Shown: positions 1 through 29,473 of the stretch, piece by piece | How positions within the stretch are numbered: the first letter of the stretch is position 1 | Layout: every line of letters starts with the position of its first letter | Source of the DNA: a virus | Taxonomy: Duplodnaviria; Heunggongvirae; Uroviricota; Caudoviricetes | Length of the DNA stretch: 38,936 nucleotides | Strand: one strand, 5' to 3' | IMG/VR virus record: IMGVR_UViG_2802429244_000013 | Span: 1 to 38,936 of that record | Notes under the pieces: generated by a model | Database searches by the model: none | Told to the model about the DNA's origin: nothing | Seen by the model: the letters and a program-made list of their open reading frames with translations, nothing else | Program-made: the position numbers and the translations under genes

Positions 1-192
1 ATGTTCGCGCAGGTACTTTTTGTTTGCTATCTGGACGCTGGTTGTGAAGATATTGTGGTTGATGTCTACAATACGGAACAGCAGTGCCTCTACTCAATGG
101 ACGATCAACGGATCCGCCACGGTGGCTGTTTTCCCGTTGAAGATTTCATTGATGGGTTCTGGCGGCCTGCGCAAGATTACAGTGACTTTTAA
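1..192 (+). CDS. small hypothetical protein (63 aa), possibly host YebW-like
   Basis: ORF starts at ATG at position 1 and is convergent with the phosphatase gene; size matches the small gene recalled next to pphA in E. coli; no motif recognised. Confidence 0.3.
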   Translation: MFAQVLFVCYLDAGCEDIVVDVYNTEQQCLYSMDDQRIRHGGCFPVEDFIDGFWRPAQDYSDF

Positions 193-849
193 TTACTGGA
201 GTCGTTCCAACGTGAGTGTTCCACCAAAGACCGCGCCGGTATCAATATAATGCAAGTTACCGATATCTACGCGATGGCGTAATGGCGTATGACCAAACCA
301 GAAATGATCAGCGCCGGTAATTCCCTGCCCTTTTCGGCCTTCACGCAATCGCGAGCGACTCCACAACACCTGATGCAGATCGACTTCCTTATGCCACTCA
401 TAAATATCATTGGGGTAATCCGCATGGGCGATGACATGCAGTCCGCTACTACAGCTTAATTCAATTATCCACGGCAAAGACCCGCACTTTTCCAGCGCCC
501 TTCTCGCTTGCTCACGTTGGTGCTCTGTCAGTGCGGCAAACCAGTCGCCACCATTCATAAACCACAAAGACATCTGCTGCGATGCCAGCGCATCCATCGC
601 CATCTGCTCATGATTGCCTCTTACCGCCCTGACCCAGCGTTGATCCAGTAATTGCAGGCAACGCAAACTCTCCGGGCCACGATCGATAACGTCACCAACC
701 GAGATTAACAAGTCTTGCCACGGGTCAAACCGGCAGAACCATAATTTCTCTCGCAGTTGCGCCAGGCAGCCATGAATATCACCCACCAGCCAAATATGTC
801 GCCACTGACTACCATCAATTCTCTGATAGATGTGGCCTGCCTGTTTCAT
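193..849 (-). CDS. pphA: serine/threonine protein phosphatase, PrpA/PphA-like calcineurin-type metallophosphatase
   Basis: ORF 193..870; likely start is ATG at 849 preceded by an AAGGA RBS; metallophosphatase motifs GDIHGC, GDVIDRG and GNHE; strong resemblance to E. coli PrpA from memory. Confidence 0.8.
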   Translation of the reverse strand: MKQAGHIYQRIDGSQWRHIWLVGDIHGCLAQLREKLWFCRFDPWQDLLISVGDVIDRGPESLRCLQLLDQRWVRAVRGNHEQMAMDALASQQMSLWFMNGGDWFAALTEHQREQARRALEKCGSLPWIIELSCSSGLHVIAHADYPNDIYEWHKEVDLHQVLWSRSRLREGRKGQGITGADHFWFGHTPLRHRVDIGNLHYIDTGAVFGGTLTLERLQ

Positions 850-997
850 CAATTCCTTACTCCCGCGCATAAGATCACATTATTTTAACAAAAATGTTAA
901 AAAAGCCTGGACTGAAGCAGTAGAGTGTGTGTTATGGTTGATTGTGAAGTCAGTGAGGGAAAAGCAGTAATGCCATTATCAAACTGGTTTTATAGAT

Positions 998-1023
998 AAA
1001 AAGAGACCGAACACGATTCCTGT
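998..1023 (-). other. 3'-terminal fragment of SdsR/RyeB sRNA, probable prophage attachment core (attR junction)
   Basis: Minus strand reads acaggaatcgtgttcggtctcttttt, which matches the recalled 3' terminator end of SdsR; the match stops after about 25 nt, as expected for a duplicated att core. Confidence 0.4.
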
Positions 1024-1327
1024 TTTCGTCAACAAACAATAAACCCCTTTAAAATTAATGCGTTGAATAAATTTACGTTCATCTTTTAATCCCTAACGCG
1101 TACCATTGCATATTAATACATTCAATTAGTTACCATTTTTTTCGAGTTTTTTAGAGAAATTTTCGGGAATATTTCAGGTCAATCCATGCATACACAAGCA
1201 ATTCCTGTATTGAATAATTCCGTAGCAATTATGTAAAATCATCTCCGGCTGATTTTCATTCAAACTCGCGCTATCGAACGTCCATCAGCCAGCCGTGGCA
1301 CGTTCTTGCATACGACGTGCTACGGTT

Positions 1328-1729
1328 TCATTTATCTCCGACCGGAAACTTCTTATACAAAGTCGATACGCCAACATCATAGATGATCGCCACCTTCTGG
1401 CGAGGAACGCCTGATGCAATTAATCGCCCGGCCTGCGCCCATTGTTCTGGTGTAAGTTTGGGACGACGTCCCCCAATTCGTCCCTGTGCGCGAGCAGCTT
1501 CCAGTCCTGCTTTTGTTCGTTCAACAATCAGTTCACGTTCCATTTCAGCCAGGGCACCCATCACATGGAAGAAAAAGCGTCCCATTGGTGTGCTGGTATC
1601 AATTGAATCAGTCAGACTACGAAAGTTGATGCCTCGTTCGCGCAACTCCTCCACCAGCACGACATTCCAGACAACCAGTGTGTCGCCTGCCGATAATGTC
1701 ACAACTGACTGGCGGGTGGAATTGTGGAA
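1328..1729 (-). pseudogene. pin: DNA invertase remnant (Pin/Gin/Hin serine recombinase), N-terminal catalytic domain missing
   Basis: ORF 1328..1702 encodes the C-terminal part of a Pin-like protein (GDTLVVW, ELRERGINFRSLTDSIDTS, GRFFFHVMGALAEMERE, GRIGGRRPKLT); first codon is GTG, the frame closes 9 codons upstream, and about 15 residues are missing after VVW relative to Pin. Confidence 0.75.
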
Positions 1730-1789
1730 TTAATGCTTGGTGATATCAGCAGTACAGATAAAGAAAAACTATCTGCCTGGATAGAATAC

Positions 1790-1824
1790 AAAAAAGAAGT
1801 AAAAGCCGTCGACACTTCGACGGC
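1790..1824 (-). terminator. rho-independent terminator after the tail fibre operon
   Basis: Stem gccgtcga/tcgacggc with loop cact at 1805-1824, followed on the minus strand by a T-rich tract; sits right after the tfa stop at 1833. Confidence 0.5.
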
Positions 1825-1832
1825 ACCTGAGA

Positions 1833-2240
1833 TTAGCTGGCCTGAACTGCCGGAGGCGTAGGCCATTCAATATCTGGCGCACTGGAGGTATCCACCAGAT
1901 CCAGTGCGTCCAGGTAATCCAGCCACAAATTATATTGCGCCAGTTCCTCGTCTTTCAGACGACCAATAGCCGCTTTACCGGGCCACTGCTTGCTGTTAAT
2001 AAAATCATTTGCAGCACGTATGCGTCCTTCTTTTTCGAGTTCTGCTTCCTGGATTAACTGTTCTTTAGTTTTCTCAGGTTCGGGAGGGGCTGTGAAATTA
2101 TTTCCGTCATAGATCCATCCAATATCAACTGCAACACCAGAGATATTAACTGCCTTAAAATCGGCAAACATATCTCCTGCACCATCCCAAACAACGATAT
2201 TAACAACAATATTGTTTTTAATTAGTGCGTATCTGTTCAT
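1833..2240 (-). CDS. tfa: tail fibre assembly protein (Tfa chaperone)
   Basis: C-terminal Tfa signature LWLDYLDALDLVDTSSAPDIEWPTPP; ATG at 2240 overlaps the tail fibre stop by 1 nt. Confidence 0.8.
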   Translation of the reverse strand: MNRYALIKNNIVVNIVVWDGAGDMFADFKAVNISGVAVDIGWIYDGNNFTAPPEPEKTKEQLIQEAELEKEGRIRAANDFINSKQWPGKAAIGRLKDEELAQYNLWLDYLDALDLVDTSSAPDIEWPTPPAVQAS

Positions 2241-3292
2241 TAGCCGTATACCCACAAAATCGCCAGACCGTCAGCCCCTGCTCCACCTGACATAGACACC
2301 CCGGTAGACCCTGAGCCATAAATAGAGACCGCGCCGCTTCCGCCAGAGCCATTGCCTCTGGCATTATTTCCCGCCGATGCATTGACTCCCGAACTAATTC
2401 CGATTGCCACACCGCCCACTCCGAACTCAGAGTCAGCCCCTTTCCCGCCAAGCGCATTTTTATCCGAGAACAGAAATCCAGAGTTTCCACCATACCCGAT
2501 ATGCTGTGCTATCAATTCTGCTCTACCAGGAATGGTGTTATTAGCATTCGGAGACGCTGTAGGCCCGCCGGTTGGCAGAACATTAAATGCTGCCCCCTTA
2601 GCTCCACCTCTCCCACCAGTAGCAGTAATACCGTCGATAATCGTAGCACCACCGTCACTTCCATTAGCTCCGGTTGCGGGAGTTGGCACGCCCCCCGCAC
2701 CACCTGCGCCAATAGTAATATTAATTTTCTGACTGGCATCAACTGTGAATTTTGCTACCACACGGCTACCTGAATTCCCGCCCTGCCCTACTGACGCATA
2801 TCCGGGTTGTACGGTCGTGGAGTTACTGCCACCGCCGCCTCCGCCACCAATCATATCTGCCACAACAAACCTGGCATCTTTCGGCAGTGTAATTTGCCGG
2901 GATGTGTCAATCCGGTACACTGCAATGAGTCTTCCTGTTCCATCTCCCAAACCAAGGTTTTCGAGAGCCGTTTTCACCGTGCCATCCGATTTGATATCAC
3001 CAAACGGATTCTTGCGGCTCAGGTATTCAACAGCAAACCCCGATCCCAGCAATTCAACAAAACCGGGCAGATCACCATTATCAAGCACATCCCGTTGCGT
3101 TTTATCACTTACAAACTGGGCCAGAGCTGCAGCAATAAAGCTGGCCTGCCGAATAACCTTATTGACTTGCGCACTGGAGGCTTTCCCTGCTGTAAATCCG
3201 GATAAAAGCGCAGGCAACGCTTCCCATTCCTTCTGCGACATAACATTGGCATTTTTACCCGTTGCGAATGCTTTAAAGTCATTTTTTGCCAT
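2240..3292 (-). CDS. tail fibre protein with glycine-rich collagen-like repeats
   Basis: 350-aa ORF with a conserved N-terminal fibre attachment region then Gly-rich low-complexity stretches ([15 protein letters not shown]); ATG at 3292 overlaps the upstream stop (ATGA). Confidence 0.75.
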
Positions 3293-3972
3293 CAGAGTAA
3301 TACTCCCCATGCCCCTACATCAAAACCACTGATAAATTCGTTATCCATATCAAAACCAAAAAATTTTGAACCTTCCGATGGGGTTTCCACCGAAGGTGTT
3401 TCAATACCACCCGCCCACACCCCGGCGGCTTTTACTGTGAGATATCCCTGTTTAATTGCAGCAATTAACTCACGCGATACATCTGAAATATCAGTATCAG
3501 GAAAGACCCAGACCGATATCGTCATGTCCTGGTTATCGACAATCTGCATTCGCAGCCCGGATCCTGCTGTCGCCGTGTCAAGAATTGCTGGAAGCGAATC
3601 ATTCCGTCCGTCCCAGTTATTAATCGCAATCTTCGCTTTAAGGATGACACGATAAGTTTCATCGCTGAGATACATGTATCCGGAATCAGGATCATATGGC
3701 CCCTGCCATACCCCCTGATCATATCCAAGCCCGTCGGTATCCCAGCTGAAATAGACACCTGAGATAGGCTGGCTGACAACACGGCTACGTCCGATCCACA
3801 ATCCCAGAATGTCAAGTTGCACACCAACCGCAGAGTCAATATCAAATGCAGTAATCAGCCCTCTGGTGGCCGCCGCAACATCAATAAGCGGCCGGGTCAT
3901 CAGATCAACATGCGCAAGAAATTTAGGTTTGGTGGCGTGGTAGTTCGTGATTAGTTCGGTGTATTTGCTCAT
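3292..3972 (-). CDS. tail or baseplate protein (Mu gp48-like)
   Basis: 226-aa ORF coupled to the baseplate J-like gene upstream and the tail fibre downstream; position matches Mu/SfV-type baseplate clusters. Confidence 0.55.
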
Positions 3973-5168
3973 GACTCCACCGTTATAACGATATTTTCCG
4001 GGGTACAGGACGCAGATTCGTTGTATCTGATATCAATGTTTGATGACGACAAAGCCCCCGGGGATTTCCCAATCGTCAGTTCCTGAATATCGTAATAGCG
4101 TGCATTCCCGCCACTCACCACGCCAAGATTCGCCGGTGAGTAAATGCGACTTAAAAGGACCGAATCACCAATCATCAGACTATTGATATAGTCGGAAATA
4201 GCCTGCTGGATCTGCTGCCCTATCTGTGAGGTATAACCCGTAAAAACTTTTAATTTAATCCGGGCATAAACAGGCACATCACTGGAACGCGAGAATTTGA
4301 TTACATGGGGATTGCCGTATTTATCCGGAACCGTAACGGATGTTGTGCCGTGAGTGGCTGTCCCCTGGCCTTTATTCCCTCTGATAGCCTGAGCAATATC
4401 CGTCACATCACCGCCATCTACAATTACAGCAACAGAGTGTGGCGGTAACCCGTTACCGTCCTCCGAACCAGTATCGTTTTCATAGAGTTTGTGGCGGGTT
4501 ACACCGGTAACATTAGAAACAGCACCATCCAGTGCTTCAAATGGGGTTATTGATGGCAACGCAACACTTTGCGACTGGCGGATACGTAACTCCGCATCAG
4601 TTTCTGCCGGAGTGCCCACAGTAGCCGCAGCAGGATTGGTTACCGAAACCCAGCCACGGGTTGGCGTATTAATTTCAGTGATTGTTCCAGCCAGCGCCGC
4701 CACTGCACCACTGACGGAACATGTTGCGGTCGCCATCACTGTACCATCCACGCCGACCACCACTGAAGCAGGCAAACGCCATATCACATTATTACTGTCT
4801 TTCACGCTGCCATTAATGATGGTTGTTCCGGCAGTTCCTGTAAGAAGCAAATCAACCGTAGAGTTCGTCGCGCCTTTACGTGAAATACCATTTATTTTCA
4901 CGTTACTGGTCAGTGCAGCCCCATAGCCGGTTGCCGGTGAAAAACAGTTGTAGACAGTTATCGCCATATTATTGGCATCATGAATCGCCAGCGCCATCAG
5001 AGCCACCATCTGGCCGTCTTTGCTGTCCGGTTCGAGGTAGGCATCACTGCCATAAATCTGCTGAAAATAGCTAATCAGGGTGCTGAGTATCGTCTGATAA
5101 TCAGGCGCACTGATCCCCTCTGCGGTTACCTTTGCAGATAAACCGAGAGAATCAAGGTTCAGAGCCAT
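3969..5168 (-). CDS. baseplate J-like protein
   Basis: 399-aa ORF with typical size and position for the baseplate J / Mu gp47 family; stop and start overlap its neighbours. Confidence 0.7.
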   Translation of the reverse strand: MALNLDSLGLSAKVTAEGISAPDYQTILSTLISYFQQIYGSDAYLEPDSKDGQMVALMALAIHDANNMAITVYNCFSPATGYGAALTSNVKINGISRKGATNSTVDLLLTGTAGTTIINGSVKDSNNVIWRLPASVVVGVDGTVMATATCSVSGAVAALAGTITEINTPTRGWVSVTNPAAATVGTPAETDAELRIRQSQSVALPSITPFEALDGAVSNVTGVTRHKLYENDTGSEDGNGLPPHSVAVIVDGGDVTDIAQAIRGNKGQGTATHGTTSVTVPDKYGNPHVIKFSRSSDVPVYARIKLKVFTGYTSQIGQQIQQAISDYINSLMIGDSVLLSRIYSPANLGVVSGGNARYYDIQELTIGKSPGALSSSNIDIRYNESASCTPENIVITVES

Positions 5169-5521
5169 TACGCCTCCGATGTAACAGTCGTTATTCCATA
5201 GAGAGTGTCGATTTCAGCGGAAAACATGACACGTCGGGTCGTGGTATCCACCGTCGTATTGAAAGAGAGGATTGATTTAACGCCCTGCGTTTCCAGAATG
5301 CGTTTTCTGATCGCTAGGTTGTAAGTTTCCGGTTTTTGCCTGCCCAGCACAGACTGGATCCACGGAGTCCCTTCGGTGGTGTCGAGAAACCATTGCCCAT
5401 ACCACAATTCGAATCGCGTTTTCACAGCCTGCGCCACGGCCTCAGGCGAGTTAATCAGCCAGGTGTCATCACCGCTGCCAAAGGTGTAATCGCCATCGGC
5501 GTCTTCACGTCTGTATCGCAT
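5168..5521 (-). CDS. baseplate protein (GPW/gp25-like)
   Basis: 117-aa ORF between the baseplate V-like and J-like genes; 1-nt overlap at both ends. Confidence 0.55.
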   Translation of the reverse strand: MRYRREDADGDYTFGSGDDTWLINSPEAVAQAVKTRFELWYGQWFLDTTEGTPWIQSVLGRQKPETYNLAIRKRILETQGVKSILSFNTTVDTTTRRVMFSAEIDTLYGITTVTSEA

Positions 5522-6273
5522 CAGTTTACCCCGTCGGTACTGCTTCCACCGCGCTGAACACCGCCATGAGTGTGCGTATCATCGATTGGCTTGCCGTTAG
5601 CCTTAACGCTCCCCAAGAACTCAACAGCACCAGTGATTTTTGAAGCCACGCCAGAAACAACAGACCCCACCATACCTCCCATCCAGGTTAACAGGCCATG
5701 AATGGTTACTTTCTCAGAAAAATCAGCCAGAGGGGCAACCACATCAAGGCCCCCCGGAGCGACAATTTTAATTTTCCTGGTATCAGGATTAAGCTCAAAA
5801 TAGGTGCTGCCGTCATCACTACGCAACTGTGTGGCACTGGTATTAATACCGCTAATCTTCCTTGCCTGCGACTGGGGACCGACAATACAAAACGCATCCG
5901 ATAAATCATGCATTCTGTCATCGACCGGCTCCTGTATCCCGCCACTCTGCCACCAGAAATCAATACAACGATCGGCAAAAATCACCAAACATTCATCACC
6001 GGCTTTAACTGGAAAAGTCAACGTACAGCCTCCGCCGCGCGGAAATACCACTGGCACATCCACCAGCAGGGGTAATGTCGTCGACTGGTTGATTCCATTT
6101 GAGTCCGGCTCATAGCCTTTAATCGCAGGTTGAACAACCACTGTTACCGTGTCCGGATCAAATGACTGGACGATGCCGGGCATAGAAACACGCAGCGCCG
6201 ACATGACAGAGCCAGCAAGTCTTACATCGGCCTGTTCTTTGCTACCAAGTTGAGCGCTTAAAGAAACGGGCAT
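5521..6273 (-). CDS. baseplate assembly protein V / spike (Mu gp45-like)
   Basis: 250-aa ORF with the N-terminal region typical of phage baseplate V proteins; position in the baseplate cluster. Confidence 0.6.
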   Translation of the reverse strand: MPVSLSAQLGSKEQADVRLAGSVMSALRVSMPGIVQSFDPDTVTVVVQPAIKGYEPDSNGINQSTTLPLLVDVPVVFPRGGGCTLTFPVKAGDECLVIFADRCIDFWWQSGGIQEPVDDRMHDLSDAFCIVGPQSQARKISGINTSATQLRSDDGSTYFELNPDTRKIKIVAPGGLDVVAPLADFSEKVTIHGLLTWMGGMVGSVVSGVASKITGAVEFLGSVKANGKPIDDTHTHGGVQRGGSSTDGVN

Positions 6274-6291
6274 TCATATGTCTCCAGAAAG

Positions 6292-6316
6292 TAAAAAACC
6301 CGCCGGGTGGCGGGTT
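6292..6316 (-). terminator. rho-independent terminator of the small membrane protein gene
   Basis: Hairpin cccgcc-gggt-ggcggg at 6299-6314 followed on the minus strand by TTTTTT, 17 nt after the stop at 6333. Confidence 0.55.
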
Positions 6317-6332
6317 CATTATTGAAGTTTCA

Positions 6333-6572
6333 TTACTGCTTGTTTGCTTCTAACGCTTCAGCTATTCGGCGAAGATACTCATTGTTTTTAAATGAAACCA
6401 TGATGCACTCAAAGAATATTCGGCAAAATACAGCACATAACAAAAGCACTAAAGCGCCAGCAGCCTTCCCATTAACAAACGTTATAATGGCGGCAACAAC
6501 CAGAAGTAACATTGTGATGCCATACAGAACGTTGATGATTTTTGGAGTTATTAATTTATCAAATCCGAACAT
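6333..6572 (-). CDS. small hydrophobic membrane protein (79 aa), moron
   Basis: Two predicted transmembrane segments; AAGGAA RBS; own promoter and terminator; inserted between baseplate genes. Confidence 0.6.
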   Translation of the reverse strand: MFGFDKLITPKIINVLYGITMLLLVVAAIITFVNGKAAGALVLLLCAVFCRIFFECIMVSFKNNEYLRRIAEALEANKQ

Positions 6573-6608
6573 GCGACAAATTCCTTATCGTGAAAGTAGA
6601 AGTATCAC

Positions 6609-6636
6609 ATTATAATTACGGGTGATTAATCAACAA
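6609..6636 (-). promoter_or_regulatory. sigma70-like promoter for the small membrane protein gene
   Basis: Minus strand TTGTTG (6631-6636), 16-nt spacer, TATAAT (6609-6614), about 35 nt upstream of the start codon. Confidence 0.4.
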
Positions 6637-6711
6637 TCTTTTTGCATGGAAAGGAACCGATGATTTTCGGCGCATCCATGCTGTTCTGCAGAAGCTGGAC
6701 GCCAATGTAAT

Positions 6712-7047
6712 TCACTTCACCTTCCGGCAATCATACGTCCAGAACTCCCGAGGCTCGTCCATATTTTTGCGGATAACTTCAACGTTGAGGATCGCTTTTT
6801 TGTTTCGTTTGATGTAGTCCATACCTAACCAACGTCCAGTATTAGGATCAGGTAACATCCATTGCATCATGACATTATCGAAATCGTCTTTTTGTTTCAA
6901 AAAGGTCATTTTTTGTGTTTCTGGCTTTTGACCATTGATGTGCATGAGGCCATCATTACCAGCATCAAAGCGGAATGGTCCGCACTGCGTTGCCGCCGAA
7001 ACTGTTAACGGCAGGGCCAAGAATAAACAAAAAAATACTTTTTTCAC
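6712..7047 (-). CDS. small secreted protein with N-terminal signal peptide (111 aa)
   Basis: MKKVFFCLFLALPLTVSAATQ is a signal peptide; GTG start with GGAG RBS, overlapping the upstream stop (GTGA); no family recognised. Confidence 0.5.
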   Translation of the reverse strand: MKKVFFCLFLALPLTVSAATQCGPFRFDAGNDGLMHINGQKPETQKMTFLKQKDDFDNVMMQWMLPDPNTGRWLGMDYIKRNKKAILNVEVIRKNMDEPREFWTYDCRKVK

Positions 7048-8078
7048 TCTACATCTCCGACTTTGTCCAAAGTGCCTTTTGCCAATAGTTCTTTGCCACC
7101 TTTAGCCAGGCAAAGCAGGTCCATATACCACGCCTGCCCTCGGGTGTCGCCAGTATAATCAATGCTGCCCACAATGTAATCACCGTCAGTATTAATGCTG
7201 GCAGGCTGTGACATGCCTGGCAGACCGTTAACGTAGAGATTACCGTCGCTTTCAGACTCATCCAGTCGTGCTGGCGATTTCGCTACCTGGTCATTACTCA
7301 AAGAGGCACGGTATACAGATGCCTGATCCAGACGAATAAGCCCACCGAGCTTAATATTTGGATTAATCAGGCATCTGACATTTACGCCAGCTCCCATCGT
7401 CTGCTGTGGCATACCGATAAGCCCGGTGTTAGCATTCAACACCGTAGCAACACCAATATATTTATCTTCAGGAACAATATTTACCAGATTATTTTCATAC
7501 CACCAGTTAGCCTTACACTGCCCTGCGATATGATTCATCAACCTTGATGTGTTTTGATAAACAACGCGACCCCGGGGAAATACCGTTTCAGGCATGTCAG
7601 GAACTGCGCCGGATTCGATGCCATATGGTTCGAATGATTTCATACCCAGACTGAAAAGATCTCTGTACTTCCAGCCAGCTGCCACTGTGGTTTTCACACT
7701 TGCGTTCAGGTGGCCTTCCCAGCTGTCAATACACTGCAACATGATCCAACTGTCTGTGGCATTATCTTTACCAGTGACAGTAAAACGGATATCTCCATTG
7801 AATATCATACCAACGTTTTCATCAGGATAATTACCTGCTGCATCCGGTTGCCCCTTGTATCCGGCAATAACCTGTATACGCGAAAACTCCTTCTGCATAA
7901 TCCGGTTCTGAGTGGTAGGAGACAGGTTATAAACCTTAAAATTTCCAACGAATCCATTAAATATGGTCGCAGGCATTTTCTGAATATTGAAAGTGACTTT
8001 AAGCTCAGAAATTTTTATCCCATCGCCCTTATCATCAACAAGCAATAATTCAAAGTGACGCATCCAGTTTTTCGACAT
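7044..8078 (-). CDS. baseplate hub or tail protein (Mu gp44/P-like)
   Basis: 344-aa ORF with ATG start confirmed (MSKNWM); size and position fit the P-like baseplate protein of Mu/SfV-type tails. Confidence 0.5.
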   Translation of the reverse strand: MSKNWMRHFELLLVDDKGDGIKISELKVTFNIQKMPATIFNGFVGNFKVYNLSPTTQNRIMQKEFSRIQVIAGYKGQPDAAGNYPDENVGMIFNGDIRFTVTGKDNATDSWIMLQCIDSWEGHLNASVKTTVAAGWKYRDLFSLGMKSFEPYGIESGAVPDMPETVFPRGRVVYQNTSRLMNHIAGQCKANWWYENNLVNIVPEDKYIGVATVLNANTGLIGMPQQTMGAGVNVRCLINPNIKLGGLIRLDQASVYRASLSNDQVAKSPARLDESESDGNLYVNGLPGMSQPASINTDGDYIVGSIDYTGDTRGQAWYMDLLCLAKGGKELLAKGTLDKVGDVE

Positions 8079-8080
8079 TG

Positions 8081-8383
8081 TTACTCCGTGAAAACATAGA
8101 GGTGTGAGAGCGTTCCAAGATCGAATTGCGTCGGATTCTCCTGCCCTGCCACGTCGCAGAGCACCACCAGAGAAAAACCCAGATCCATATATCGATACTG
8201 TGCCAGCAGGTCAGCCCCAGTAATCATCGGTATACCTGATATAATGGCGGAGCCATTGCTGTCAGCAAGATCCAGAACCCAGTACTCGCCTCGCCAGATG
8301 ACAGACAGGTGATAAACCGAACCGTTAATTGTGGTGGCAAAAGTCTGATTGTCAGCAACCAGTGGGATTTCTACGGCTTGCAT
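8081..8383 (-). CDS. tail protein (100 aa)
   Basis: ORF coupled between the tape-measure-proximal gene and the hub gene. Confidence 0.45.
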   Translation of the reverse strand: MQAVEIPLVADNQTFATTINGSVYHLSVIWRGEYWVLDLADSNGSAIISGIPMITGADLLAQYRYMDLGFSLVVLCDVAGQENPTQFDLGTLSHLYVFTE

Positions 8384-8386
8384 GAA

Positions 8387-9037
8387 TCACCTTCCCAGAA
8401 ATAAATTGCTCAAATACCCATCAACAGTGGAGATACCTTCTTGCGCCATCTGTGGCAGCGATTTCAGAATGGAATTATTCGGCAGCACCGTTGTTTTGGT
8501 GCCTGTATTCTGCACAGCAGACGTTCCGACTCCCTCGGTCATATTGTTTTTCGGGGCAACCCTGACTGACTGCGTGGAGGTAATAATTACTTCCCTGAGG
8601 GTAAGTGTCGCCAGAAGCACATTTTCACTACTCTTATCGGTCGTAACCTCCAGCGTTTTTATCAACATATTGTTGTAAATACGCTTGCCGGTTGTCACAT
8701 CGAAAGGAATACGATTCCGCTGCAGGTTAAGCAGTTCCTGATACAGTTCTTTCGGGCTCAGCCCCAGTAAACTGGTAGCCGTCAGGTTACTGGCAAAATC
8801 AAGCAGCGATCCGCCTCCGGAAAAACCGGTTTCCATCACAACCTCAGAAGGGCGCCTGAATGCGTGTTCTGATATATAACCAGCGCCCTCACCACTGGCA
8901 CCAGCATTCGTGGGCTGTTCAACCGGATGTTCCGTAATTTCCAGGGCGTCAGTGTGCTTTTCGGTAATAACCACATCAGGAATAATGATTCCTATTGAGC
9001 GGGTTCGCTGCTGCAGTAAAACAGATAAAAAGTCCAT
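8387..9037 (-). CDS. tail protein next to tape measure (216 aa), possibly DNA-circulation-like
   Basis: ATG at 9037 overlaps the tape measure stop by 1 nt; synteny with Mu gp43-position genes. Confidence 0.45.
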   Translation of the reverse strand: MDFLSVLLQQRTRSIGIIIPDVVITEKHTDALEITEHPVEQPTNAGASGEGAGYISEHAFRRPSEVVMETGFSGGGSLLDFASNLTATSLLGLSPKELYQELLNLQRNRIPFDVTTGKRIYNNMLIKTLEVTTDKSSENVLLATLTLREVIITSTQSVRVAPKNNMTEGVGTSAVQNTGTKTTVLPNNSILKSLPQMAQEGISTVDGYLSNLFLGR

Positions 9038-11043
9038 TACGCAGGTCCTTTCAATTGCTGTACCGCCCTGGCATTTACAGCCCCCTGCTTGTCAGCGATC
9101 AGATTAGCCGCCTCCTGAGGGTTGTTAACTCCATGAACATTTATAACAGTCTGCTGGTTAAGGCTGCCAGCGGCGGCCTGATACGCCAGCGGGCTGTTCC
9201 AGTTTGAATAACCTTCTTTGCGCGCCATCGACTGCATCAATGCTCCCATAGTCTGGGGATCTGTAAGATTCAATATTGCATTCGGTGATACTCCCATCCA
9301 TTTCGCAACATCCTGTGCATACTTTTTCGGATCGTTGTTATCACCTGCCGGGGCCCAGGTACTGACAATATCCTGAATAGTCTGTAATGCTCGTCCGGTT
9401 GTTTTCCCGGTAAAGTAACGCATGAGCTGGTTTTTCATCGCCTCCCAGCCCTCAAGAGCTGATTCGAAAAACCGGAACCCTTTACCGCTCACCGGGCGAA
9501 TGTTCCCGGGGTTATTGTTGCGATCAGCAAGAGTACCGCCGCCGGGGATGTCGGGCTGGACGTTGGAGCCATGCACTACACCGTTACTCTGTCCCTGCCG
9601 GATAACTTTACCGGGTCCCCCGTGCAACCAGTCCATCCACGCAGGCCATTCACGGACCTCACTGACATCCCTGCGTCCGATATCTGTTTTTATACCAATA
9701 GCAGCCAGCGTGTCGCCGATAATTCGCTTCGTATACCTCAGTGAAGATTTTGCGCTATCGGCAATATTTTCTCTGTCACTAACAATATAGCCCGCGTAAA
9801 GCGCCCACAATTTAAGCCAGGGTGGGACCGGTAAACCTGATATTTTTCCGAAAGCCCCCAGAACCTTGGATACCCAGACACCCGCGATGAATGTACCGAG
9901 GATTTCCAGTGCATTTTGCCAGCCGCCAACACCATCTTTTAGTTCCAGAAGGTGATCACGAAGCCAGGTGATCGCATCCTTCGCTTTATCTATTGCCGGT
10001 TGCCATTTTTCCCAGTCGATAAGACTGTTACCGCCTTCTTTCCATGTTTTGTAGTCTTCCCACAAGAGACCGAGAGCCACGATCAGACCGGTAATCAGCC
10101 CTATAGGTGACATCCAGAAAGTAGAGTTAAGTATCCGCATGGCGACAACCAGACCGCCGATAACCTCTATCAGGGTTTTCGTTTCGGCATCCAGTTTCCC
10201 CCACCACTCGATGATATCGCCGACACCATCGACTATCCGAAATGCTACCCGCCCGACTATCTCACCCAGCCAGAGGATCCCCTTTATGACCTTTGTGATG
10301 GTGACTTCAATTTTGGGAAAATTTTCAATTATCTTTTTGCGCAGGTTATCAATCTGCCCCGCCAGTCCGTCCGCAAGATTCGATCCGATTTTGTCCCGCG
10401 CCATCCCGGCCATTTCACCGAGCGATTTCAGCGAGGTCATAAACCGGTTTGACGATAAGGCAGCCTGATCGGCATTAAATCCGATCGCTTTCACCATTTC
10501 TGAATACTGAGCGCTGAACTGCCCCACACCACGACGCATGGCCATCAGGGTATTTTCGTCAATGCCCAGCATCTGCGCATACTGGTTAGCCCGGTAATAC
10601 GGCATACCGCTGAGCTTCTGGCCTACACCTGTAAAAATAGCGGCCATGTCACGCATGTTGCCGCTGGCATCACGGGTCTGTACGCCCAGGCGATTCAGAA
10701 AGCCTTCTGCTCCGGGATTGTTACGAATAAACCGGGAGAGGCTTTCCAGAGAAGATCGCGCAGCGTCCACACTGCCGCCAACCTGCGAAACCGCATAGCC
10801 AATAGACTGAATTCCCTGGACTGTCGCGCCGGTGCGCTGTGACGCCCAGTAAAGATTATCCAGGCCGGAGGCGATCTTAGCCGTGAAGGCCACCACGGAC
10901 AGCGCAGCTCCTTCAACGGCCAGTCCCATTTTGATGACATTTGCAGTTGTACCGGCGAGGACAGAACCGAACTTTTTCGCTCCTGCATCATCCACACTGA
11001 AGCCAAGCGAGACGAGGAAATCTTTAATAGTTTCAGCGTTCAT
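9037..11043 (-). CDS. tail tape measure protein
   Basis: 668 aa from ATG at 11043 with a strong GGAGAGAGG RBS (the track ORF begins at an upstream TTG); Ala/Gly-rich helical protein with hydrophobic central segments. Confidence 0.8.
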   Translation of the reverse strand: MNAETIKDFLVSLGFSVDDAGAKKFGSVLAGTTANVIKMGLAVEGAALSVVAFTAKIASGLDNLYWASQRTGATVQGIQSIGYAVSQVGGSVDAARSSLESLSRFIRNNPGAEGFLNRLGVQTRDASGNMRDMAAIFTGVGQKLSGMPYYRANQYAQMLGIDENTLMAMRRGVGQFSAQYSEMVKAIGFNADQAALSSNRFMTSLKSLGEMAGMARDKIGSNLADGLAGQIDNLRKKIIENFPKIEVTITKVIKGILWLGEIVGRVAFRIVDGVGDIIEWWGKLDAETKTLIEVIGGLVVAMRILNSTFWMSPIGLITGLIVALGLLWEDYKTWKEGGNSLIDWEKWQPAIDKAKDAITWLRDHLLELKDGVGGWQNALEILGTFIAGVWVSKVLGAFGKISGLPVPPWLKLWALYAGYIVSDRENIADSAKSSLRYTKRIIGDTLAAIGIKTDIGRRDVSEVREWPAWMDWLHGGPGKVIRQGQSNGVVHGSNVQPDIPGGGTLADRNNNPGNIRPVSGKGFRFFESALEGWEAMKNQLMRYFTGKTTGRALQTIQDIVSTWAPAGDNNDPKKYAQDVAKWMGVSPNAILNLTDPQTMGALMQSMARKEGYSNWNSPLAYQAAAGSLNQQTVINVHGVNNPQEAANLIADKQGAVNARAVQQLKGPA

Positions 11044-11272
11044 TATCCTCTCTCCATTTCTCAATGCGCCGCTGGTTATCTGCTTTTACCGCCAGATGGT
11101 CATTCAAGAGAGCAATGTCATACAAATCGACAGAGCCATCTTTAAGTGCTGTATAGGGAATTAACCCGGCGTCAACCGGATTGAGAAGGTAGGACAGCCC
11201 GTCCGGCAGGCTGTTAAACGTCAGCCCTGTTGCAGGCTCTGCGTCGTGCTGGTAAGGGGTGTAGGCAAAAAA
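11033..11272 (-). other. -1 frame extension of the tail assembly chaperone (putative programmed frameshift product)
   Basis: Translated by hand: the -1 frame is open for 79 codons from TTTTTTG (plus 11266-11272) to a TGA at 11033-11035, covering the whole chaperone/tape-measure gap. Confidence 0.55.
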
Positions 11273-11673
11273 TTTCCCAGCGAATCGGCGACCACCCGCG
11301 CCACCAGCTGCAGCATGACCAGCAGGTCAATATCATCAAACATCAGTTCGCCCTGGGTAAATACCGGAACCCATCCGTCCATATGACGCCGCGATACCAC
11401 CGCAAGACAGGGATGAATAATCGCATCGGTGTCATCTTCGGTCAGGGAAGACAGTTCCTCAGCGATACGCGGGAGCATGGTTTCAAACACCGGTTTTAAC
11501 TGCTCTAATTTCACGGTGTCGATTTTGCCATCAGCAGGCAAACGGGAGCGAATGCTCCCGAAATCTGACATCATTCCCGCCAGTACTGGCAGAAGTTTGC
11601 GGGTCACTTTCAGCTGGTCAAAAACGCTGAGTTTTGCCGCGCGATATTTCACGCCTTTAATTTCGAATTCCAT
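11221..11673 (-). CDS. tail assembly chaperone
   Basis: 150-aa ORF immediately upstream of the tape measure gene; -1 frame extension described in findings. Confidence 0.7.
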   Translation of the reverse strand: MEFEIKGVKYRAAKLSVFDQLKVTRKLLPVLAGMMSDFGSIRSRLPADGKIDTVKLEQLKPVFETMLPRIAEELSSLTEDDTDAIIHPCLAVVSRRHMDGWVPVFTQGELMFDDIDLLVMLQLVARVVADSLGNFLPTPLTSTTQSLQQG

Positions 11674-11676
11674 GTA

Positions 11677-12117
11677 TTAAAACTCCCCGAGAACCTGGTC
11701 AATCTTGCCACAGTCAAACACCCACGGCATCGTATTACCGGTTTTAGCGTTGGCGTTATCCGGTTGCTTCTGGAACGCAACACTGCGTGCCGTGATGATG
11801 TCGCCGCTGACCTTGTTGCGGATCACGATAACGTTATTCCCCCATGTGGCAGAAGACTGGCTCTGTGCGTTATACGCCAGCGACAATTTTTTATTTGTCG
11901 GTGATGTCTTCAGAAGGTTAACGGTAATCGTCCCGCTTTTATCTGCATGGAGACTGTGCATCACTTCGCCATCAGCACCGATGGTCATGGTGTTTTTAGG
12001 ACCGCCCATCGCAACCACAATCCCCTCTTCAGAACTTGCCGAACCGTACCCGAGGTCAATCGAACCGGTCGGCCCGGTCAGCGTCGCAGTGACATCCATA
12101 AAAGAATAGGTAGACAT
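11677..12117 (-). CDS. tail tube protein
   Basis: 146-aa ORF between sheath and chaperone; AAGGGGAA RBS. Confidence 0.65.
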   Translation of the reverse strand: MSTYSFMDVTATLTGPTGSIDLGYGSASSEEGIVVAMGGPKNTMTIGADGEVMHSLHADKSGTITVNLLKTSPTNKKLSLAYNAQSQSSATWGNNVIVIRNKVSGDIITARSVAFQKQPDNANAKTGNTMPWVFDCGKIDQVLGEF

Positions 12118-12127
12118 TCACTTCCCC

Positions 12128-13273
12128 TTAGCGAACAACGTTAATCTGTACGTCAGCGTAATGAACCGCGCCTGCAAGTTTTATTGCAGCCTGAATCACC
12201 GGAGCCTTACGGGCTTCACGTTCTGATTGTGCCTGTTCATCCAGCGACTGGGCGTATACGTAATAACCTTTGGGCAGCGTGTCACCTGATGACAACTGGC
12301 CAAGGTCGCCACCGTTCCATACGCCCGGAGCAATCAGTCCATTCTGAACGGCCTGATCCAGTGATTTTTCAACATTTGATAACAGTCGGGTAATACCGGC
12401 TTCAGTCTGGGGAACCTTCGTGGTGCTGGTATAAAGCAGGTTATAGAGGTTGGTCTGCACATAATTCTGTAACCAGTCCAGGCCGTGGCGTTCATCAAAG
12501 AAATCGCCGTTAGCCATCACTCCCTGCTGGAGGATAGCTGTATCATTCTGGTAGTACACGAACACATTGCAGTTTTTTGCATCAAGTGCCGATGCCTGGC
12601 TGACTGTCAGTGTTTCATACCCGACACCCGGCTCCTGCTTAAACTTGAGCGTAATCGCGGTATTACTGCCATTGAAATTAACCGTGAATGCCCGGCCAAA
12701 TGCAGATAACGCAGCGTATTTATTACCCGATGAATACTGAATAAAACTGCGTGAATATCCGGCGGCTTTCAGTTTTGATGCCAAATCATCGCTGGATGCA
12801 GTCTGCAGGCATTTCTCATCGCTTGTCGTAATCGCCAGAATACGGCTTACAGAAGAGGATTCGATCGCCGCAGCCACTTTCAGCCAGTCTGCATCCGGAA
12901 TATCTTCATCGTCTGCAATCCCCAGCCCATACCATGAAGTATAATCAAGCATGGCATTCACAGCCTGCTCCAGCGTCTCAGGCGTGGCCTGTTCGCTGTC
13001 TCCCTTCGTTTTCACCCAACGACCAACAAAAACCTCCTGAGGTTTCGGTGATTGAGAGAAAAACACCTGCGCAGCCTTATATTCTGGTGATTCCACGCCA
13101 AAATCTTTTCCAATATCTTCCGCGGCAGAATAACGGCGAATGCGCTCACTTACCGGAATGATTGTGGACGGGCCGAGAATGAGTAATGCACCAAAATTTC
13201 GCCCTGATGCTGCACGCGGCGACATGATCACATCAACATTAACAACGTTTGATACAGGCAAGCCCTGTGCCAT
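12128..13273 (-). CDS. tail sheath protein
   Basis: 381-aa ORF upstream of the tube gene with a GGAGA RBS; size and position typical of contractile tail sheath. Confidence 0.7.
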
Positions 13274-13276
13274 AGC

Positions 13277-13840
13277 TTAATCTCCGAAAAAGATGACTGG
13301 TGCTTCCACCAGCGATTTAATACCGTACTCACGCACAACCTTCCGGCGCAGGCGCACCGTCATATCGTAGCGGCGGACCCATTGCTGATTAATAAGTTCA
13401 GGGAAGGGAGTCAGACCTGTGTAATCGCCAAGAGACAGCCCCAGCGCATTCAGTGCTGCATTGTTCTGCGGCACAGATATACCGTCACGAAACCGGGACG
13501 CATACACCATCCCCGCCGGTCCATAAAACGAAGCCATACACTCAATCGTTTCATGCCGCCAGAGCTGAGAGCCATCATCGGTCTGTCTGGTGAATGCCGG
13601 ACTGTCATCACCTGACCATCCGATAACCCCAAACGCACACCAGTTCGTTTCAACCGGTAGCAGTGGCGGCTGCTCTTTCTGCCAGCGCGGGCGAACCATC
13701 CCGGCAGACAGACCGGAAACGTTACGCATCCACTGGCTTAACAGCCTGTCGAGCGCTTCGTCATAATCCGGATCGCCACTGGTTGGTATTAACCATCCGC
13801 GCTCTGTACTGGTGTTATTGCTCAACCGGAGTTCCCCCAT
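13277..13840 (-). CDS. phage structural protein, possibly tail terminator or neck
   Basis: ORF starts TTG-ATG, so the ATG at 13840 is taken as the start; lies between head-tail joining genes and the sheath. Confidence 0.4.
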   Translation of the reverse strand: MGELRLSNNTSTERGWLIPTSGDPDYDEALDRLLSQWMRNVSGLSAGMVRPRWQKEQPPLLPVETNWCAFGVIGWSGDDSPAFTRQTDDGSQLWRHETIECMASFYGPAGMVYASRFRDGISVPQNNAALNALGLSLGDYTGLTPFPELINQQWVRRYDMTVRLRRKVVREYGIKSLVEAPVIFFGD

Positions 13841-14204
13841 CAAACGGCATCAACTCACAATGCGCCTGAACGAATCCGGCCCCATAAGCTGTATACGGGT
13901 CGACGAAGGTCACACGATAATCACGGCCCTGATACGTCACGATATCGGCATCACGGCCAGTCTGTCCCTGTGTCAGTCGCTCAGTCGTCACAATCAGAAT
14001 TGCACCACTGATTACCTGCCCGGCCTGCATACGACGGTTTTCCAGAGAGCGATCAACAGTTACGACTCCGGCAAACTGCTTTTTAACTTCGCTGTCGCTG
14101 CCGATCCCGTCCTCATCCACCGTTTGCACACGGCGTGTTACCCACAAATTGAAGTCGCAAAAATCGGGGTCAAAAAGCACATCTGTTACATCAAGAGTCG
14201 GCAT
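13815..14204 (-). CDS. phage structural protein, possibly head-tail connector
   Basis: 129-aa ORF with a GAGGG RBS; overlaps both neighbours. Confidence 0.4.
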   Translation of the reverse strand: MPTLDVTDVLFDPDFCDFNLWVTRRVQTVDEDGIGSDSEVKKQFAGVVTVDRSLENRRMQAGQVISGAILIVTTERLTQGQTGRDADIVTYQGRDYRVTFVDPYTAYGAGFVQAHCELMPFDGGTPVEQ

Positions 14205-14745
14205 TTTTATCCCTCACAACATGGGTAATAGCTCTGCGATATTGCCCGGTGTCAATTAATGGTTTCGCCAGTTCGGTTCCCGGAGATTCGCCAGCAGCAC
14301 GCCGGGCAAGTTCCATTGTTGCCCCCTTGCGCCCCCGACGAGCCCGGGCTTCAACAGTACTGTCAGCAAGCGGCGTAAAGCCGGTAATGGTCATGTAACG
14401 CCTGACGCCATTAGCGGCCAGCGTTCCGGCACGGTTGAGTGCGCGTTCTGCTCCCGCAGCATTACCATCAAGTGCAGCCTGCGCCGCGGCTTTGAGCTGC
14501 GGCACCGTCTGCTCTTCTGCCGATTTAACGCCGGGGACCAGGTGAGGTCGTGGCGGGATGTTCTGCTCTGGTGAGCCGTATTCGTTGAGGTAACCGATGC
14601 CCGCATTACCAAACGGAACATCATCCCGCTCGCTGTCTTCCGAAGGGATGCCGACCAGCACATCTTTTTTGGTTAACGACCTGAGCGCATCCAGAATGGC
14701 CTTAGCGTTATCCACCCTCGTTGTTACACCGCTTTTGAAACTCAT
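14191..14745 (-). CDS. head-tail joining protein (HK97 gp10-like)
   Basis: C-terminal [12 protein letters not shown] resembles the HK97 gp10 family signature; ATGA overlap with the upstream gene. Confidence 0.5.
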
Positions 14746-15149
14746 AGCTGGCGACCACCTGCACCGAACATCGTGATCAACTGATAAAATTCAGCGCCAT
14801 ATCGGGTGTTATTCCAGAAACCTGCATCAGGATTCAGCGTCGCGCTGGTGTCATAGCTGACGCTTACCTTATCCACGGACTTTGAGGACTGAACACCATT
14901 GGTTGAACCGCCCGGACCATCAGCCAGCATCGCTCTGCTGTCAGCCGCCCAGAGCGTCATGTAGTGAGCAACGAACAACCCGGCAAAGTACGGAAACAAC
15001 TTTTTGCCGGTGACATTTTCGCTCAGCAGTTCATCGGCCAGATTCAGACGGAACCCGATTTGGGCGTCGGGATATTTTGCCGGGTCAGCAAATTGCGGGA
15101 AGTCGCGGCGAAAATCACTTACCGCTGGCAGACTTTGATTCTTTGACAT
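14742..15149 (-). CDS. head-tail adaptor-like protein
   Basis: Track ORF 14742..15233; internal ATG at 15149 (MSKNQS) is the likely start. Confidence 0.4.
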
Positions 15150-15483
15150 CTTTAGCCCCATTACCGCCAGTCCGGGCGGCAGTAATCTGCGCCTGCAGGC
15201 TGTCGTTCTGCTCCTGCAGTTTGAGCAATGCATCTTTCAGATCGGCAATCAGCTTATCTTTGTCGGCAATCTGCGCTTGCAGGCCGTCGATAATGGGTTG
15301 CAGATCATCGGTGTCGCTAATCACGCTTTCGGAAAGCTCAGAGTGCGCCTGGGTGAACCAGTGCGACGCGACCTCTTCCGGTACGTTATGCCGTCCCCGG
15401 CCAAACTCCTGTTTTGACTGATCGCCGAGCGTCAGCGTAAACGGGGTGTGAACATGGATGGTAACCAGCTTTTCTTTCGCCAT
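15115..15483 (-). CDS. hypothetical head-region protein with C-terminal coiled coil
   Basis: Track ORF 15115..15714; ATG at 15483 with AAGGAA RBS (MAKEKLV); C-terminus has heptad-like [25 protein letters not shown]. Confidence 0.45.
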
Positions 15484-15523
15484 TTCAGTTTCCTTCAGGC
15501 CCCTTTCGGGGCCATTCTGGTTA

Positions 15524-16465
15524 TCAGATACCGTCCACATAGGACAGAGTTTCTTTATACACTGGCTCGACTGCACCCAGCTTGCCGTAGTAAGTGACGA
15601 TCTGATACAGGCCGCGATACTGCACCGGCACGCTCTGAAGCGGAACCAGCGGGTAGCGGACGTATTTTTTATCGTTGGTGTACGCAACCATGCGATCCTT
15701 ATTCCCCACACCACGGCCTTTCAGCCATTTAACCGCGCGGATATTCAGCGGAACACCGTTCTGGTGATAGCTGATGGTGTTGGTCTGAAGGTACGTCAAC
15801 AGGGACTGGTTACCCGCAGATGAAACGATGATGCTGGACAACAGAGCAAACTGTTCAGGCGGGATCAGCAAATCACGCGGGACCACAGAGTAACCAGAAG
15901 CGGCCCACGCATCAGACAGCACCTGGTTAATGCTTGCGCGGATTTCGTCCGGTGTTGAGGTTGCCCACGTTTTGGCAGCGTTGTTGACAGGCACGCCGTC
16001 CAGGGTAACAAGGCCTTTCAGGTTTAATGCGGAATCGCCAACATATACCTGTTCATCGTTATCCATCTGCCATTTCAGTTGCATCCCGTCATACTTCTGC
16101 GTATCAATCGGGCGGCCGACCTGCTGAGCAGCCTGCAATTCTATGACCGTCCAGCCAAGTTCCATCCCCCACAGGTTCAGCGGGTTACCGGATTTGCCGG
16201 TATCCACGTTCACGCCAGCAATAGCGGTTGAGTCTTTGCCTACCCAGTTTTTGCCATTCGGATTTGCACCAGTACCCGCAGCGGCGAAGCTGGTATTCGT
16301 CCAGCTGGAAATGTCATCTGCGATAGAGACATCTTCACGCAACTGAATATCGCGGGTCCAGGTGTACCCCACCAGTGGCAGGTTCAGCGTCTGGTCGAGT
16401 CGCTCCAGCTCCCCGATGAGAAAGGCACCAGAGCTGTCAACGGTTGCCTGATCAAAAGTAATCAT
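15524..16465 (-). CDS. major capsid protein
   Basis: 313-aa ORF with AAGGAA RBS, following the putative decoration and scaffold genes; size and position typical of a major capsid protein. Confidence 0.7.
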   Translation of the reverse strand: MITFDQATVDSSGAFLIGELERLDQTLNLPLVGYTWTRDIQLREDVSIADDISSWTNTSFAAAGTGANPNGKNWVGKDSTAIAGVNVDTGKSGNPLNLWGMELGWTVIELQAAQQVGRPIDTQKYDGMQLKWQMDNDEQVYVGDSALNLKGLVTLDGVPVNNAAKTWATSTPDEIRASINQVLSDAWAASGYSVVPRDLLIPPEQFALLSSIIVSSAGNQSLLTYLQTNTISYHQNGVPLNIRAVKWLKGRGVGNKDRMVAYTNDKKYVRYPLVPLQSVPVQYRGLYQIVTYYGKLGAVEPVYKETLSYVDGI

Positions 16466-16476
16466 TCGTCTGTTCC

Positions 16477-16983
16477 TTAAATCTTCCAGGAAATTTCTGC
16501 ATTGCCGTTAGCATCACCGGCACCTGTGAATTCAGCGTTGGTCAGCACCACATTTTTGCCACTGACTGACGTGGACATGAATCCACCCAGCGGCACTTTG
16601 ATGGATTCATCAGTGGAGACGACAACGTATACCGGGTCGCCTTTTTTGATAGTGCTGGCATCAAAATCAGAACCGAGATTAACGGTCACGTAGCCACGCT
16701 TCATGGCGTCGCCCGGGAAGTTCTTGCCTGTTCCCACCTGGCGAACCATGTCCGGCTGCGACGTGGTCGGATAAGGGCGCACGTAGATCCCCTTCACCTT
16801 GTCTGCGGTATCACCATCTGCCAGCGGCACGAAAAAACCGTCATCATCGTATTTACCAGCCAGCCCATAGGCAGCGAAGGCGTTATCGGATTTAAGGACC
16901 ACCGGTTCGACGGTTAAGTCCTGCGGGCGAGAGACAGCCCCAGCAATGCCAACAGGCATCCGGTACAGAAATACATTATTCAT
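16477..16983 (-). CDS. head structural protein, possibly decoration
   Basis: 168-aa ORF directly upstream of the major capsid gene. Confidence 0.4.
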   Translation of the reverse strand: MNNVFLYRMPVGIAGAVSRPQDLTVEPVVLKSDNAFAAYGLAGKYDDDGFFVPLADGDTADKVKGIYVRPYPTTSQPDMVRQVGTGKNFPGDAMKRGYVTVNLGSDFDASTIKKGDPVYVVVSTDESIKVPLGGFMSTSVSGKNVVLTNAEFTGAGDANGNAEISWKI

Positions 16984-16986
16984 TTT

Positions 16987-18207: not shown

Positions 18208-18221
18208 GGGTTACCTGCGAT

Positions 18222-27973: not shown

Positions 27974-28129
27974 TTACTCCTCAGGTTCGTAAGCTGTGAA
28001 GACAGCGACCTCCGTCTGGCCGGTTCGGATTCGTACCTCGCAGAGGTCTTTCCTCGTTACCAGTGCCGTCACTATGACGGTTAAACAGATGACGATCAGG
28101 GCGATTAACATCGCCTTTTGCTGCTTCAT
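27974..28129 (-). CDS. hok: Hok-family type I toxin (HokD/RelF-like, 51 aa)
   Basis: MKQQKAMLIALIVICLTVIVTALVTRKDLCEVRIRTGQTEVAVFTAYEPEE matches HokD as recalled; AAGGAG RBS; conserved hok leader elements upstream. Confidence 0.85.
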   Translation of the reverse strand: MKQQKAMLIALIVICLTVIVTALVTRKDLCEVRIRTGQTEVAVFTAYEPEE

Positions 28130-28186
28130 AGCCTGCTTCTCCTTGCCTTTCGGCACGTAAGAGGCTAACCTACGTGTGCAAGTCAT
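28130..28186 (-). other. mok-like upstream reading frame in the hok leader
   Basis: ATG at 28186 opens a 19-codon frame (MTCTRRLASYVPKGKEKQA) running in-frame into hok; contains the conserved AGCCTCTTAC block. Confidence 0.35.
28143..28171 (+). promoter_or_regulatory. putative sok antisense promoter
   Basis: Plus strand TTGCCT (28143-28148), 17-nt spacer, TAACCT (28166-28171), antisense to the hok RBS region; same layout as the plasmid R1 sok promoter as recalled. Confidence 0.4.
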
Positions 28187-28252: not shown

Positions 28253-28304
28253 ATCTGCCGTTGGTGTTCATGCCTGAGACAGATAGCCTCAAGCACCCGC
28301 CGCA

Positions 28305-29046: not shown

Positions 29047-29049
29047 GTG

Positions 29050-29472: not shown

Positions 29473-29473
29473 A

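Follow-up and report, generated by a model that had tools for sequence, protein, structure and literature searches.

A very probable integrase-distal prophage junction in the 3' end of the small RNA gene sdsR in an Escherichia lineage other than E. coli

Introduction

Elements such as P4, P22, and those residing in ssrA integrate at the 3' ends of tRNA and tmRNA genes. The phage copy restores the gene at one junction, and the displaced 3' fragment of the gene is left at the far junction. A gene for a regulatory small RNA, sdsR (also called ryeB), serves as an integration target in Salmonella. The last 23 bp of ryeB were identified as a phage attachment site (Balbontin et al. 2008, J Bacteriol 190:4075, as cited in passages of PMC7380047 and PMC3333887). 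The same passages describe the ryeA/ryeB locus as a repeated insertion site that is still a phage attachment site in Salmonella, and place phage PhiW104 of Salmonella enterica DT104 in ryeB, within ryeA (PMC7380047, PMC3333887). They also relate from the 2008 study that ryeA expression was lower and ryeB expression was higher after lysogenisation (PMC7380047/PMC3333887). The ryeA promoter is located on the pphA side of sdsR, and in E. coli pphA depends on read-through from the sdsR promoter (PMC6610125). A literature search combining pphA/yebY with prophage found no E. coli-specific description of the site.

The DNA analyzed here, referred to as the window, is the whole 38,936-nt stretch of the viral record IMGVR_UViG_2802429244_000013. 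A preliminary description, made from the sequence alone, had proposed that its left end marks integration into the 3' end of ryeA/sdsR. The follow-up leaves little doubt that positions 998-1028 are the integrase-distal junction (attR in the lambda convention) of a ~42-44 kb temperate myovirus prophage, which lies in the sdsR 3' end between pphA and yebY of a non-coli Escherichia. The junction is an instance of an integration site that is already known. As far as the cited passages describe the Salmonella ryeB site, the two cases share the target, namely the terminator at the 3' end of sdsR, which lies within ryeA, and the conserved sequence GGAATCGT(A/G)TTCGGTCTCTTTTT. They also share the outcome: one junction makes sdsR complete again, and ryeA is split, with its 5' part separated from the rest. 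The present case differs in its host, a non-coli Escherichia, and in its phage, whose structural genes form a myovirus module like that of SEN34 and vB_EcoM-611R5 and whose early region is Rac-like. Furthermore, relative to what those passages report for Salmonella, attB and attP differ by G versus A in Escherichia, which confines the crossover to 11 bp.

The locus can also be compared with the lambda and HK022 systems, in which a heterobivalent tyrosine integrase joins an attP with arms to an attB core and excision depends on Xis. In both, a short core is flanked by AT-rich attP arms (~130 to 300 bp), and the integrases of the relatives of this prophage have the arm-binding, central, and catalytic domains of those systems along with an adjacent excisionase gene. 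In contrast, attB is inside a small RNA gene here but in the gal-bio intergenic region for lambda, and for this prophage Int is known from relatives only and the arm-type sites are candidates. The logic of tRNA and tmRNA targeting is the same in that the phage supplies a replacement 3' end for a structured RNA gene. However, the target here is an Hfq-dependent regulatory small RNA with an overlapping antisense partner, RyeA. Because sdsR overlaps ryeA, one of the two genes, ryeA, is left unrestored.

Results

The left end of the window consists of two genes, yebW and pphA, followed by intergenic DNA (Table 1). The gene order matches yebV-yebW-pphA of E. coli in the same orientations, and all E. 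coli matches to the window pphA are annotated pphA, with ~80% nucleotide identity. The closest relative is L086, a prophage-free JGI metagenome contig in which yebY-sdsR-pphA-yebW is uninterrupted and whose PphA is 100% identical. Over positions 1-1023, nucleotide identity is 99.8% to L086, 91% to the E. ruysiae species representative, and ~80% to E. coli, and the window PphA shares 92% amino acid identity with that of the E. ruysiae representative. Judged by these identities, the host chromosome is that of an Escherichia lineage other than E. coli. The species representatives returned by a pphA search included none that closely matched this lineage. The synteny of PphA and YebW with E. coli and the 99.8% identity to a prophage-free contig agree with the preliminary description, which had taken the phosphatase and a 63-aa ORF for host genes. 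An alignment to uninterrupted loci was also run, as had been suggested there. Aligned with L086 and the E. coli K-12 locus (L001), the window sequence tracks attB from pphA as far as ...TTCGGTCTCTTTTT/ACAGGAATCGT, beyond which it continues as phage DNA.

Table 1. Features of the window and of the attachment sites compared with it
Feature	Position in window or source	Strand	Basis or composition
yebW, 63 aa read from window base 1, DUF1482	1..192	+	Pfam 1.9e-33; synteny with E. coli
pphA, PrpA/PP1-type Ser/Thr phosphatase, 225-aa ORF	193..870	-	Pfam Metallophos; synteny with E. coli
pphA-sdsR intergenic DNA, host	871..997	+	alignments with K-12 and L086
displaced original sdsR/ryeB 3' end: 3' half of terminator stem and U-run	998..1023	-	exact K-12 match; same as L086 attB
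11-bp segment ACAGGAATCGT, same in attP, attB, and both junctions	1013..1023	-	four-way alignment
integrase-distal attP arm (P arm, lambda convention), non-coding	1024..1327		L003 and PP818812.1 comparison
candidate arm-type Int sites CYCGAAA	1138-1146, 1159-1167	-	resemble three copies in integrase-side arm
hairpin right after invertase stop codon, outer edge of attP arm	1294..1326	-	conserved in pPE4 attP
Pin/Hin-type serine invertase, first phage gene, C-terminal 124 aa only	1328..1702	-	Pfam Resolvase positions 85-144, HTH_7
remaining visible prophage, runs off window end	1703..38936		phage similarity; collinear with L003
attB	L086, same lineage		...CCCTGGACCGAAT ACAGGAATCGT GTTCGGTCTCTTTTTATCTATAAAG...
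attP	phage record PP818812.1		...TTGTTGACGAAA ACAGGAATCGT ATTCGGTCTTTTTTTAATTGTATTT...
integrase-side junction (attL)	E. coli lysogen L003		attB left arm + core + attP right arm
window junction (reverse complement)	window		attP left arm + core + attB right arm

Could the yebW-pphA flank and the sdsR fragment instead be phage cargo, with the real prophage end elsewhere? PphA-like phosphatases are known in lambdoid phages, and otherwise only the position of the two genes at the edge of the window would favour it. However, prophage-free E. coli and L086 both have yebV-yebW-pphA-sdsR-yebY as a conserved block of the chromosome, and the block is uninterrupted in 5191 of the 5426 complete E. coli genomes. 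The left side also diverges as a host chromosome would (80% to E. coli), whereas the phage side is 99.85% identical. Phage cargo is accordingly given almost no probability, and the flank is read as host DNA in what follows.

The intergenic DNA retains a block, 919-941, that is wholly conserved with E. coli despite the background identity of ~80%. This block is a putative ryeA promoter and 5' end, now directed into the prophage, because it is located on the pphA side of sdsR, where PMC6610125 places the promoter. Between this block and the sdsR end, at ~965-990, an extra 14 nt are inserted compared with E. coli, and L086 shares this insertion.

Window positions 998-1023 read AAAAAGAGACCGAACACGATTCCTGT on the plus strand and acaggaatcgtgttcggtctcttttt on the minus strand. 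The last 26 nt of E. coli K-12 SdsR (Rfam SdsR_RyeB) are exactly the reverse complement of this segment, which bears out the earlier claim that the minus strand carries the 3' terminator end of SdsR (RyeB). In the K-12 locus, Rfam places SdsR_RyeB at 2484-2583 on the minus strand (114.4 bits), and SraC/RyeA (175.1 bits) overlaps it between pphA and yebY. The window and K-12 are identical over 994-1023, differ at 1024, and match again at 1025-1028, where the similarity ends. The match had been described as stopping after about 25 nt, as expected for an att core copy. The length holds, at 26 nt, but the origin does not: the segment is host-derived, and the strict core is 11 bp. In other words, the 26 nt are the host's own sdsR end, displaced to the integrase-distal junction, and were not delivered by the phage.

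A full SdsR_RyeB gene was defined as ~100 nt with a 5' seed region, an internal hairpin, a terminator, and a score of at least 38 bits. In the window, the SdsR_RyeB model (RF00111) scored 19.7 bits (E 0.78), below the gathering score of 38, and its alignment was limited to the 3' half of the terminator. Because only terminator-end positions align, the window carries an sdsR fragment and not the gene. Likewise, the SraC/RyeA model (RF00101, 145 nt) scored 26.4 bits, below its gathering score of 37. About the first 38 model positions align well, starting with model position 1 at window 994, and the remainder is phage arm.

The low SdsR score, together with the shortness and low complexity of terminators in general, would fit a chance or convergent terminator-like sequence with no relation to sdsR. 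That explanation is hardly credible given that the 26-mer is exact, that it gave 0 matches in 100 shuffles, and that it lies in the syntenic place downstream of pphA and runs on into 99.8% identity with the attB of the same lineage. It is also a single-copy sequence in the window, even with up to 3 mismatches allowed. The segment is thus read as the sdsR end. Does it still work as a terminator? The stranded half folds at -5.7 kcal/mol (z 0.28), which is not a terminator-like fold, whereas a value of -15.8 kcal/mol was obtained for the attB terminator and likewise for the terminator repaired by the phage at attL. On these values, the candidate role of the stranded end as a terminator shielding pphA was rejected. 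A search for terminator-like sites in window 800-1800 found none.

Evidence for recombination comes from a four-way alignment, in SdsR sense, of attB from L086, attP from PP818812.1, the integrase-side junction of the E. coli lysogen L003 (NZ_CP169399), and the window. The arms are exchanged reciprocally around ACAGGAATCGT in the two junctions, which supports the proposed integration into the 3' end of ryeA/sdsR. The window junction shows the product of standard attP x attB recombination. Around the core, attP and attB share ~36 bp with three mismatches. At the positions that discriminate attP from attB, window 1012 has the host base and window 1024 has the phage base, so strand exchange took place inside the 11 bp. 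In the SdsR terminator hairpin, this segment covers the loop and the first part of the descending stem, and 998-1023 consists of the host B' arm plus the crossover segment.

Further evidence comes from a step in sequence identity. L003 is 99.85% identical to window 1024-1700 but 80.4% identical to the adjoining host DNA. The step, located at 1023/1024, indicates a horizontally moving element set against a vertically inherited chromosome. In the prophage-free E. coli genomes (5,000+), the match to the window ends at base 1028.

An uninterrupted phage version of the site is present in PP818812.1, in which the window-type arm, the core, the integrase-side arm, and int are contiguous (91.8% identity over 416 nt). 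Its integrase is 98.9% identical to that of the E. coli lysogens. The record (L093) is named 'Actinobacillus phage vB_Apl-pPE4', and its contiguous attP, which lies with the integrase gene in 2420-3953, resembles an enterobacterial sdsR 3' end. This resemblance makes Actinobacillus pleuropneumoniae look doubtful as the host of vB_Apl-pPE4.

On the phage side, the expected ~300-bp AT-rich non-coding stretch followed by phage genes is present. The attP arm is 36.5% GC (whole window, 49.4%) and contains no notable ORF. After it come the truncated invertase gene and the tail genes. Two copies of the motif CYCGAAWWW occur in the arm. Across the whole window, 6 were found and 6.4 were expected; because the count is at the chance level, the arm-type Int sites are candidates only. 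A repeat finder applied to arm-type sites returned weak two-copy families only.

A partial match to CssrB, a Shigella small RNA (RF02799), was found at window 1294-1350, within the stretch 1256-1350, with 31.7 bits against a threshold of 76. It was rejected as a small RNA gene, as the 3' hairpin alone of the 180-nt model aligns. CssrB may have originated in the 3' UTR of a prophage invertase gene. Many Stx2/Stx2c phage records contain, close to their ends, unannotated DNA with ~91% identity to positions 1256-1320.

The invertase lacks its catalytic N-terminus, and its homologue in L002 and L003 is annotated 'incomplete, missing N-terminus'. On the plus strand at 1724-1861, a 45-aa ORF resembles, on visual inspection, the C-terminus of a tail-fibre assembly protein; the intact protein of this kind is encoded at 1833-2255 in the other direction. 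The truncated invertase and this ORF appear to be what is left of a now locked tail-fibre inversion switch.

The rest of the window, 1703-38936, contains a myovirus tail and head module, lysis genes, hok/sok, C4/isrK, and a replication and immunity region. Its right part is a Rac-like kilR-ydaE-recE early region, and the last ORF is recE-like and cut by the window end. The prophage is 96.5% identical to Escherichia phage vB_EcoM-611R5 over 60% of the query and is also related to Salmonella phage SEN34. The window and the L003 prophage share the same order (86-98% identity), although some parts have been replaced in a mosaic fashion.

Two RNA-based modules were noted within the prophage. At 25818-26016 on the minus strand, C4 antisense RNA (66.7 bits), isrK (75.5), and the c4 a1/b1 target element (50.5) were found at the Rfam gathering level, and this segment is a P1/P7-style antisense-controlled antirepressor module. 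At 28124-28298, also on the minus strand, Rfam detected a full-length sok antitoxin RNA (109.5 bits), and hokD is annotated at the equivalent place in L003. The sok match indicates that the prophage carries a hok/sok type I toxin-antitoxin cassette.

The truncation of the invertase means that the prophage may be partly decayed. One possibility is that it is an immobile remnant whose far end has been lost or rearranged, in which case the copy in the window would be a fossil scar and not half of an excisable attL/attR pair. The reduced invertible segment, the mosaic replacements relative to L003, and the single core copy in a window that ends in recE are in keeping with such decay. Against it, L003 has the same truncated invertase and yet retains both junctions along with int and xis. 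The window itself shows at least 38 kb of prophage in collinear order up to its end, in which the modules for head, tail, lysis, replication, and recombination all look intact. An immobile remnant is therefore considered improbable, and the copy at 998-1023 is treated as one half of an integrated pair.

Where is the other half? A second core copy was sought across the whole window with up to 3 mismatches, and none was found beyond 998-1023. A single copy means that the second junction lies outside the window. In L003, the prophage is ~42.4 kb long, and the core is repeated at its far end by xis and a tyrosine integrase gene, adjoining yebY. The order there is recE-recT-...-xis-int, a core copy completing a full-length sdsR (118.1 bits), and yebY. 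A second E. coli lysogen, L094, has the same arrangement, with the core repeated beside xis/int next to yebY. The integrase at the homologous position in L003, L094, and the phage record is a 358-aa protein. Its domains are Arm-DNA-bind_1, Phage_int_M, and Phage_integrase, and it shares ~41% identity with HK022 Int.

By analogy with these relatives, the unseen far end of the window's prophage probably has the same structure. Live sdsR, xis, and int are predicted ~5-6 kb beyond the right end of the window. The far junction would be expected to consist of the attP arm, then ACAGGAATCGTATTCGGTCT(T/C)TTTTT completing a full sdsR, and then yebY.

Two proteins encoded in the right part of the window have identical counterparts elsewhere. 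The KilR protein encoded at 37268-37501 is identical to that in L094, whose host flank shows 97.8% identity with E. coli but 86% with the window lineage. The 107-aa protein encoded at 37698-38021 is identical to one in a Rac-type prophage at ttcA and in a short contig. The attL of L094 (16560-16640) reads ...ACAGGAATCGTATTCGGTCTCTTTTTAATT..., with the phage-type A but a C within the U-run, which implies that at least two attP variants circulate.

How widely is the site used? In 235 of the 5426 complete E. coli genomes attB is split (~4% occupied), and the window's phage arm lies next to pphA in 223 complete E. coli genomes. The 99.85% identity of this arm with E. coli, compared with ~80% for the host DNA, implies a recent spread of the phage across species. 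Among 80 enterobacterial species representatives, 50 have an intact sdsR 3' end. Unrelated DNA abuts the same breakpoint in 6 of the 80, namely two Citrobacter, Scandinavium, Phytobacter, Silvania, and Enterobacter asburiae. In these six non-Escherichia loci, the DNA at the breakpoint (A)(C)AGGAATCGT is AT-rich and mutually unrelated, indicating that several different elements target the site. The split E. coli genomes and the six other representatives also sustain the earlier view of the locus as a hot spot for foreign DNA.

Discussion

The comparisons suggest a route to the observed junction. The phage attP carries an imperfect ~36-bp copy of the 3' part of the SdsR terminator. A tyrosine integrase of the lambda/HK022 family with an arm-binding domain, presumably encoded at the far prophage end outside the window, very probably exchanged strands in ACAGGAATCGT. 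Integration would then restore a full sdsR at the integrase side, with one half of the terminator supplied by the phage. The host's own 26-nt terminator half is left stranded by pphA, followed by the AT-rich attP arm at 1024-1327 and then by phage late genes.

For annotation, the junction fixes one prophage boundary within 11 bp and assigns yebW and pphA to the host. The sdsR-like 26-mer at 998-1023 is a dead fragment, which cautions against annotating a small RNA gene there.

The arrangement also has likely consequences for transcription around the site. After integration, the ryeA promoter and ~80 nt of its 5' end would stay by pphA, cut off from the ryeA body, and sdsR would be without its convergent antisense partner. 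Similarly, pphA would be cut off from read-through from the sdsR promoter, which would now be ~43 kb away. We hold it possible, if somewhat doubtful, that a lysogenic phage at this site rewires, in Escherichia, the circuit formed by SdsR, RyeA, and pphA. If it does, the ryeA promoter and its ~80 nt (window about 930-1023, plus strand) would fire into the attP arm. The distant sdsR would be freed from both RyeA antisense control and convergent transcriptional interference, and its new terminator, made by the phage, would have a perfect stem and a longer U-run. In turn, the read-through of which pphA would be deprived is sigma-S-dependent, and since the half-terminator no longer folds, pphA would be exposed to read-through from phage late genes. 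In other words, the prophage would act as a regulatory switch for a toxin/antitoxin-like pair of small RNAs and a heat-shock phosphatase.

The hot spot described at ryeA/ryeB in Salmonella thus plays the same role in Escherichia and in other Enterobacteriaceae. The predicted loss of coupling, between ryeA and sdsR and between pphA and the sdsR promoter, would be a testable and modest extension of the published work.
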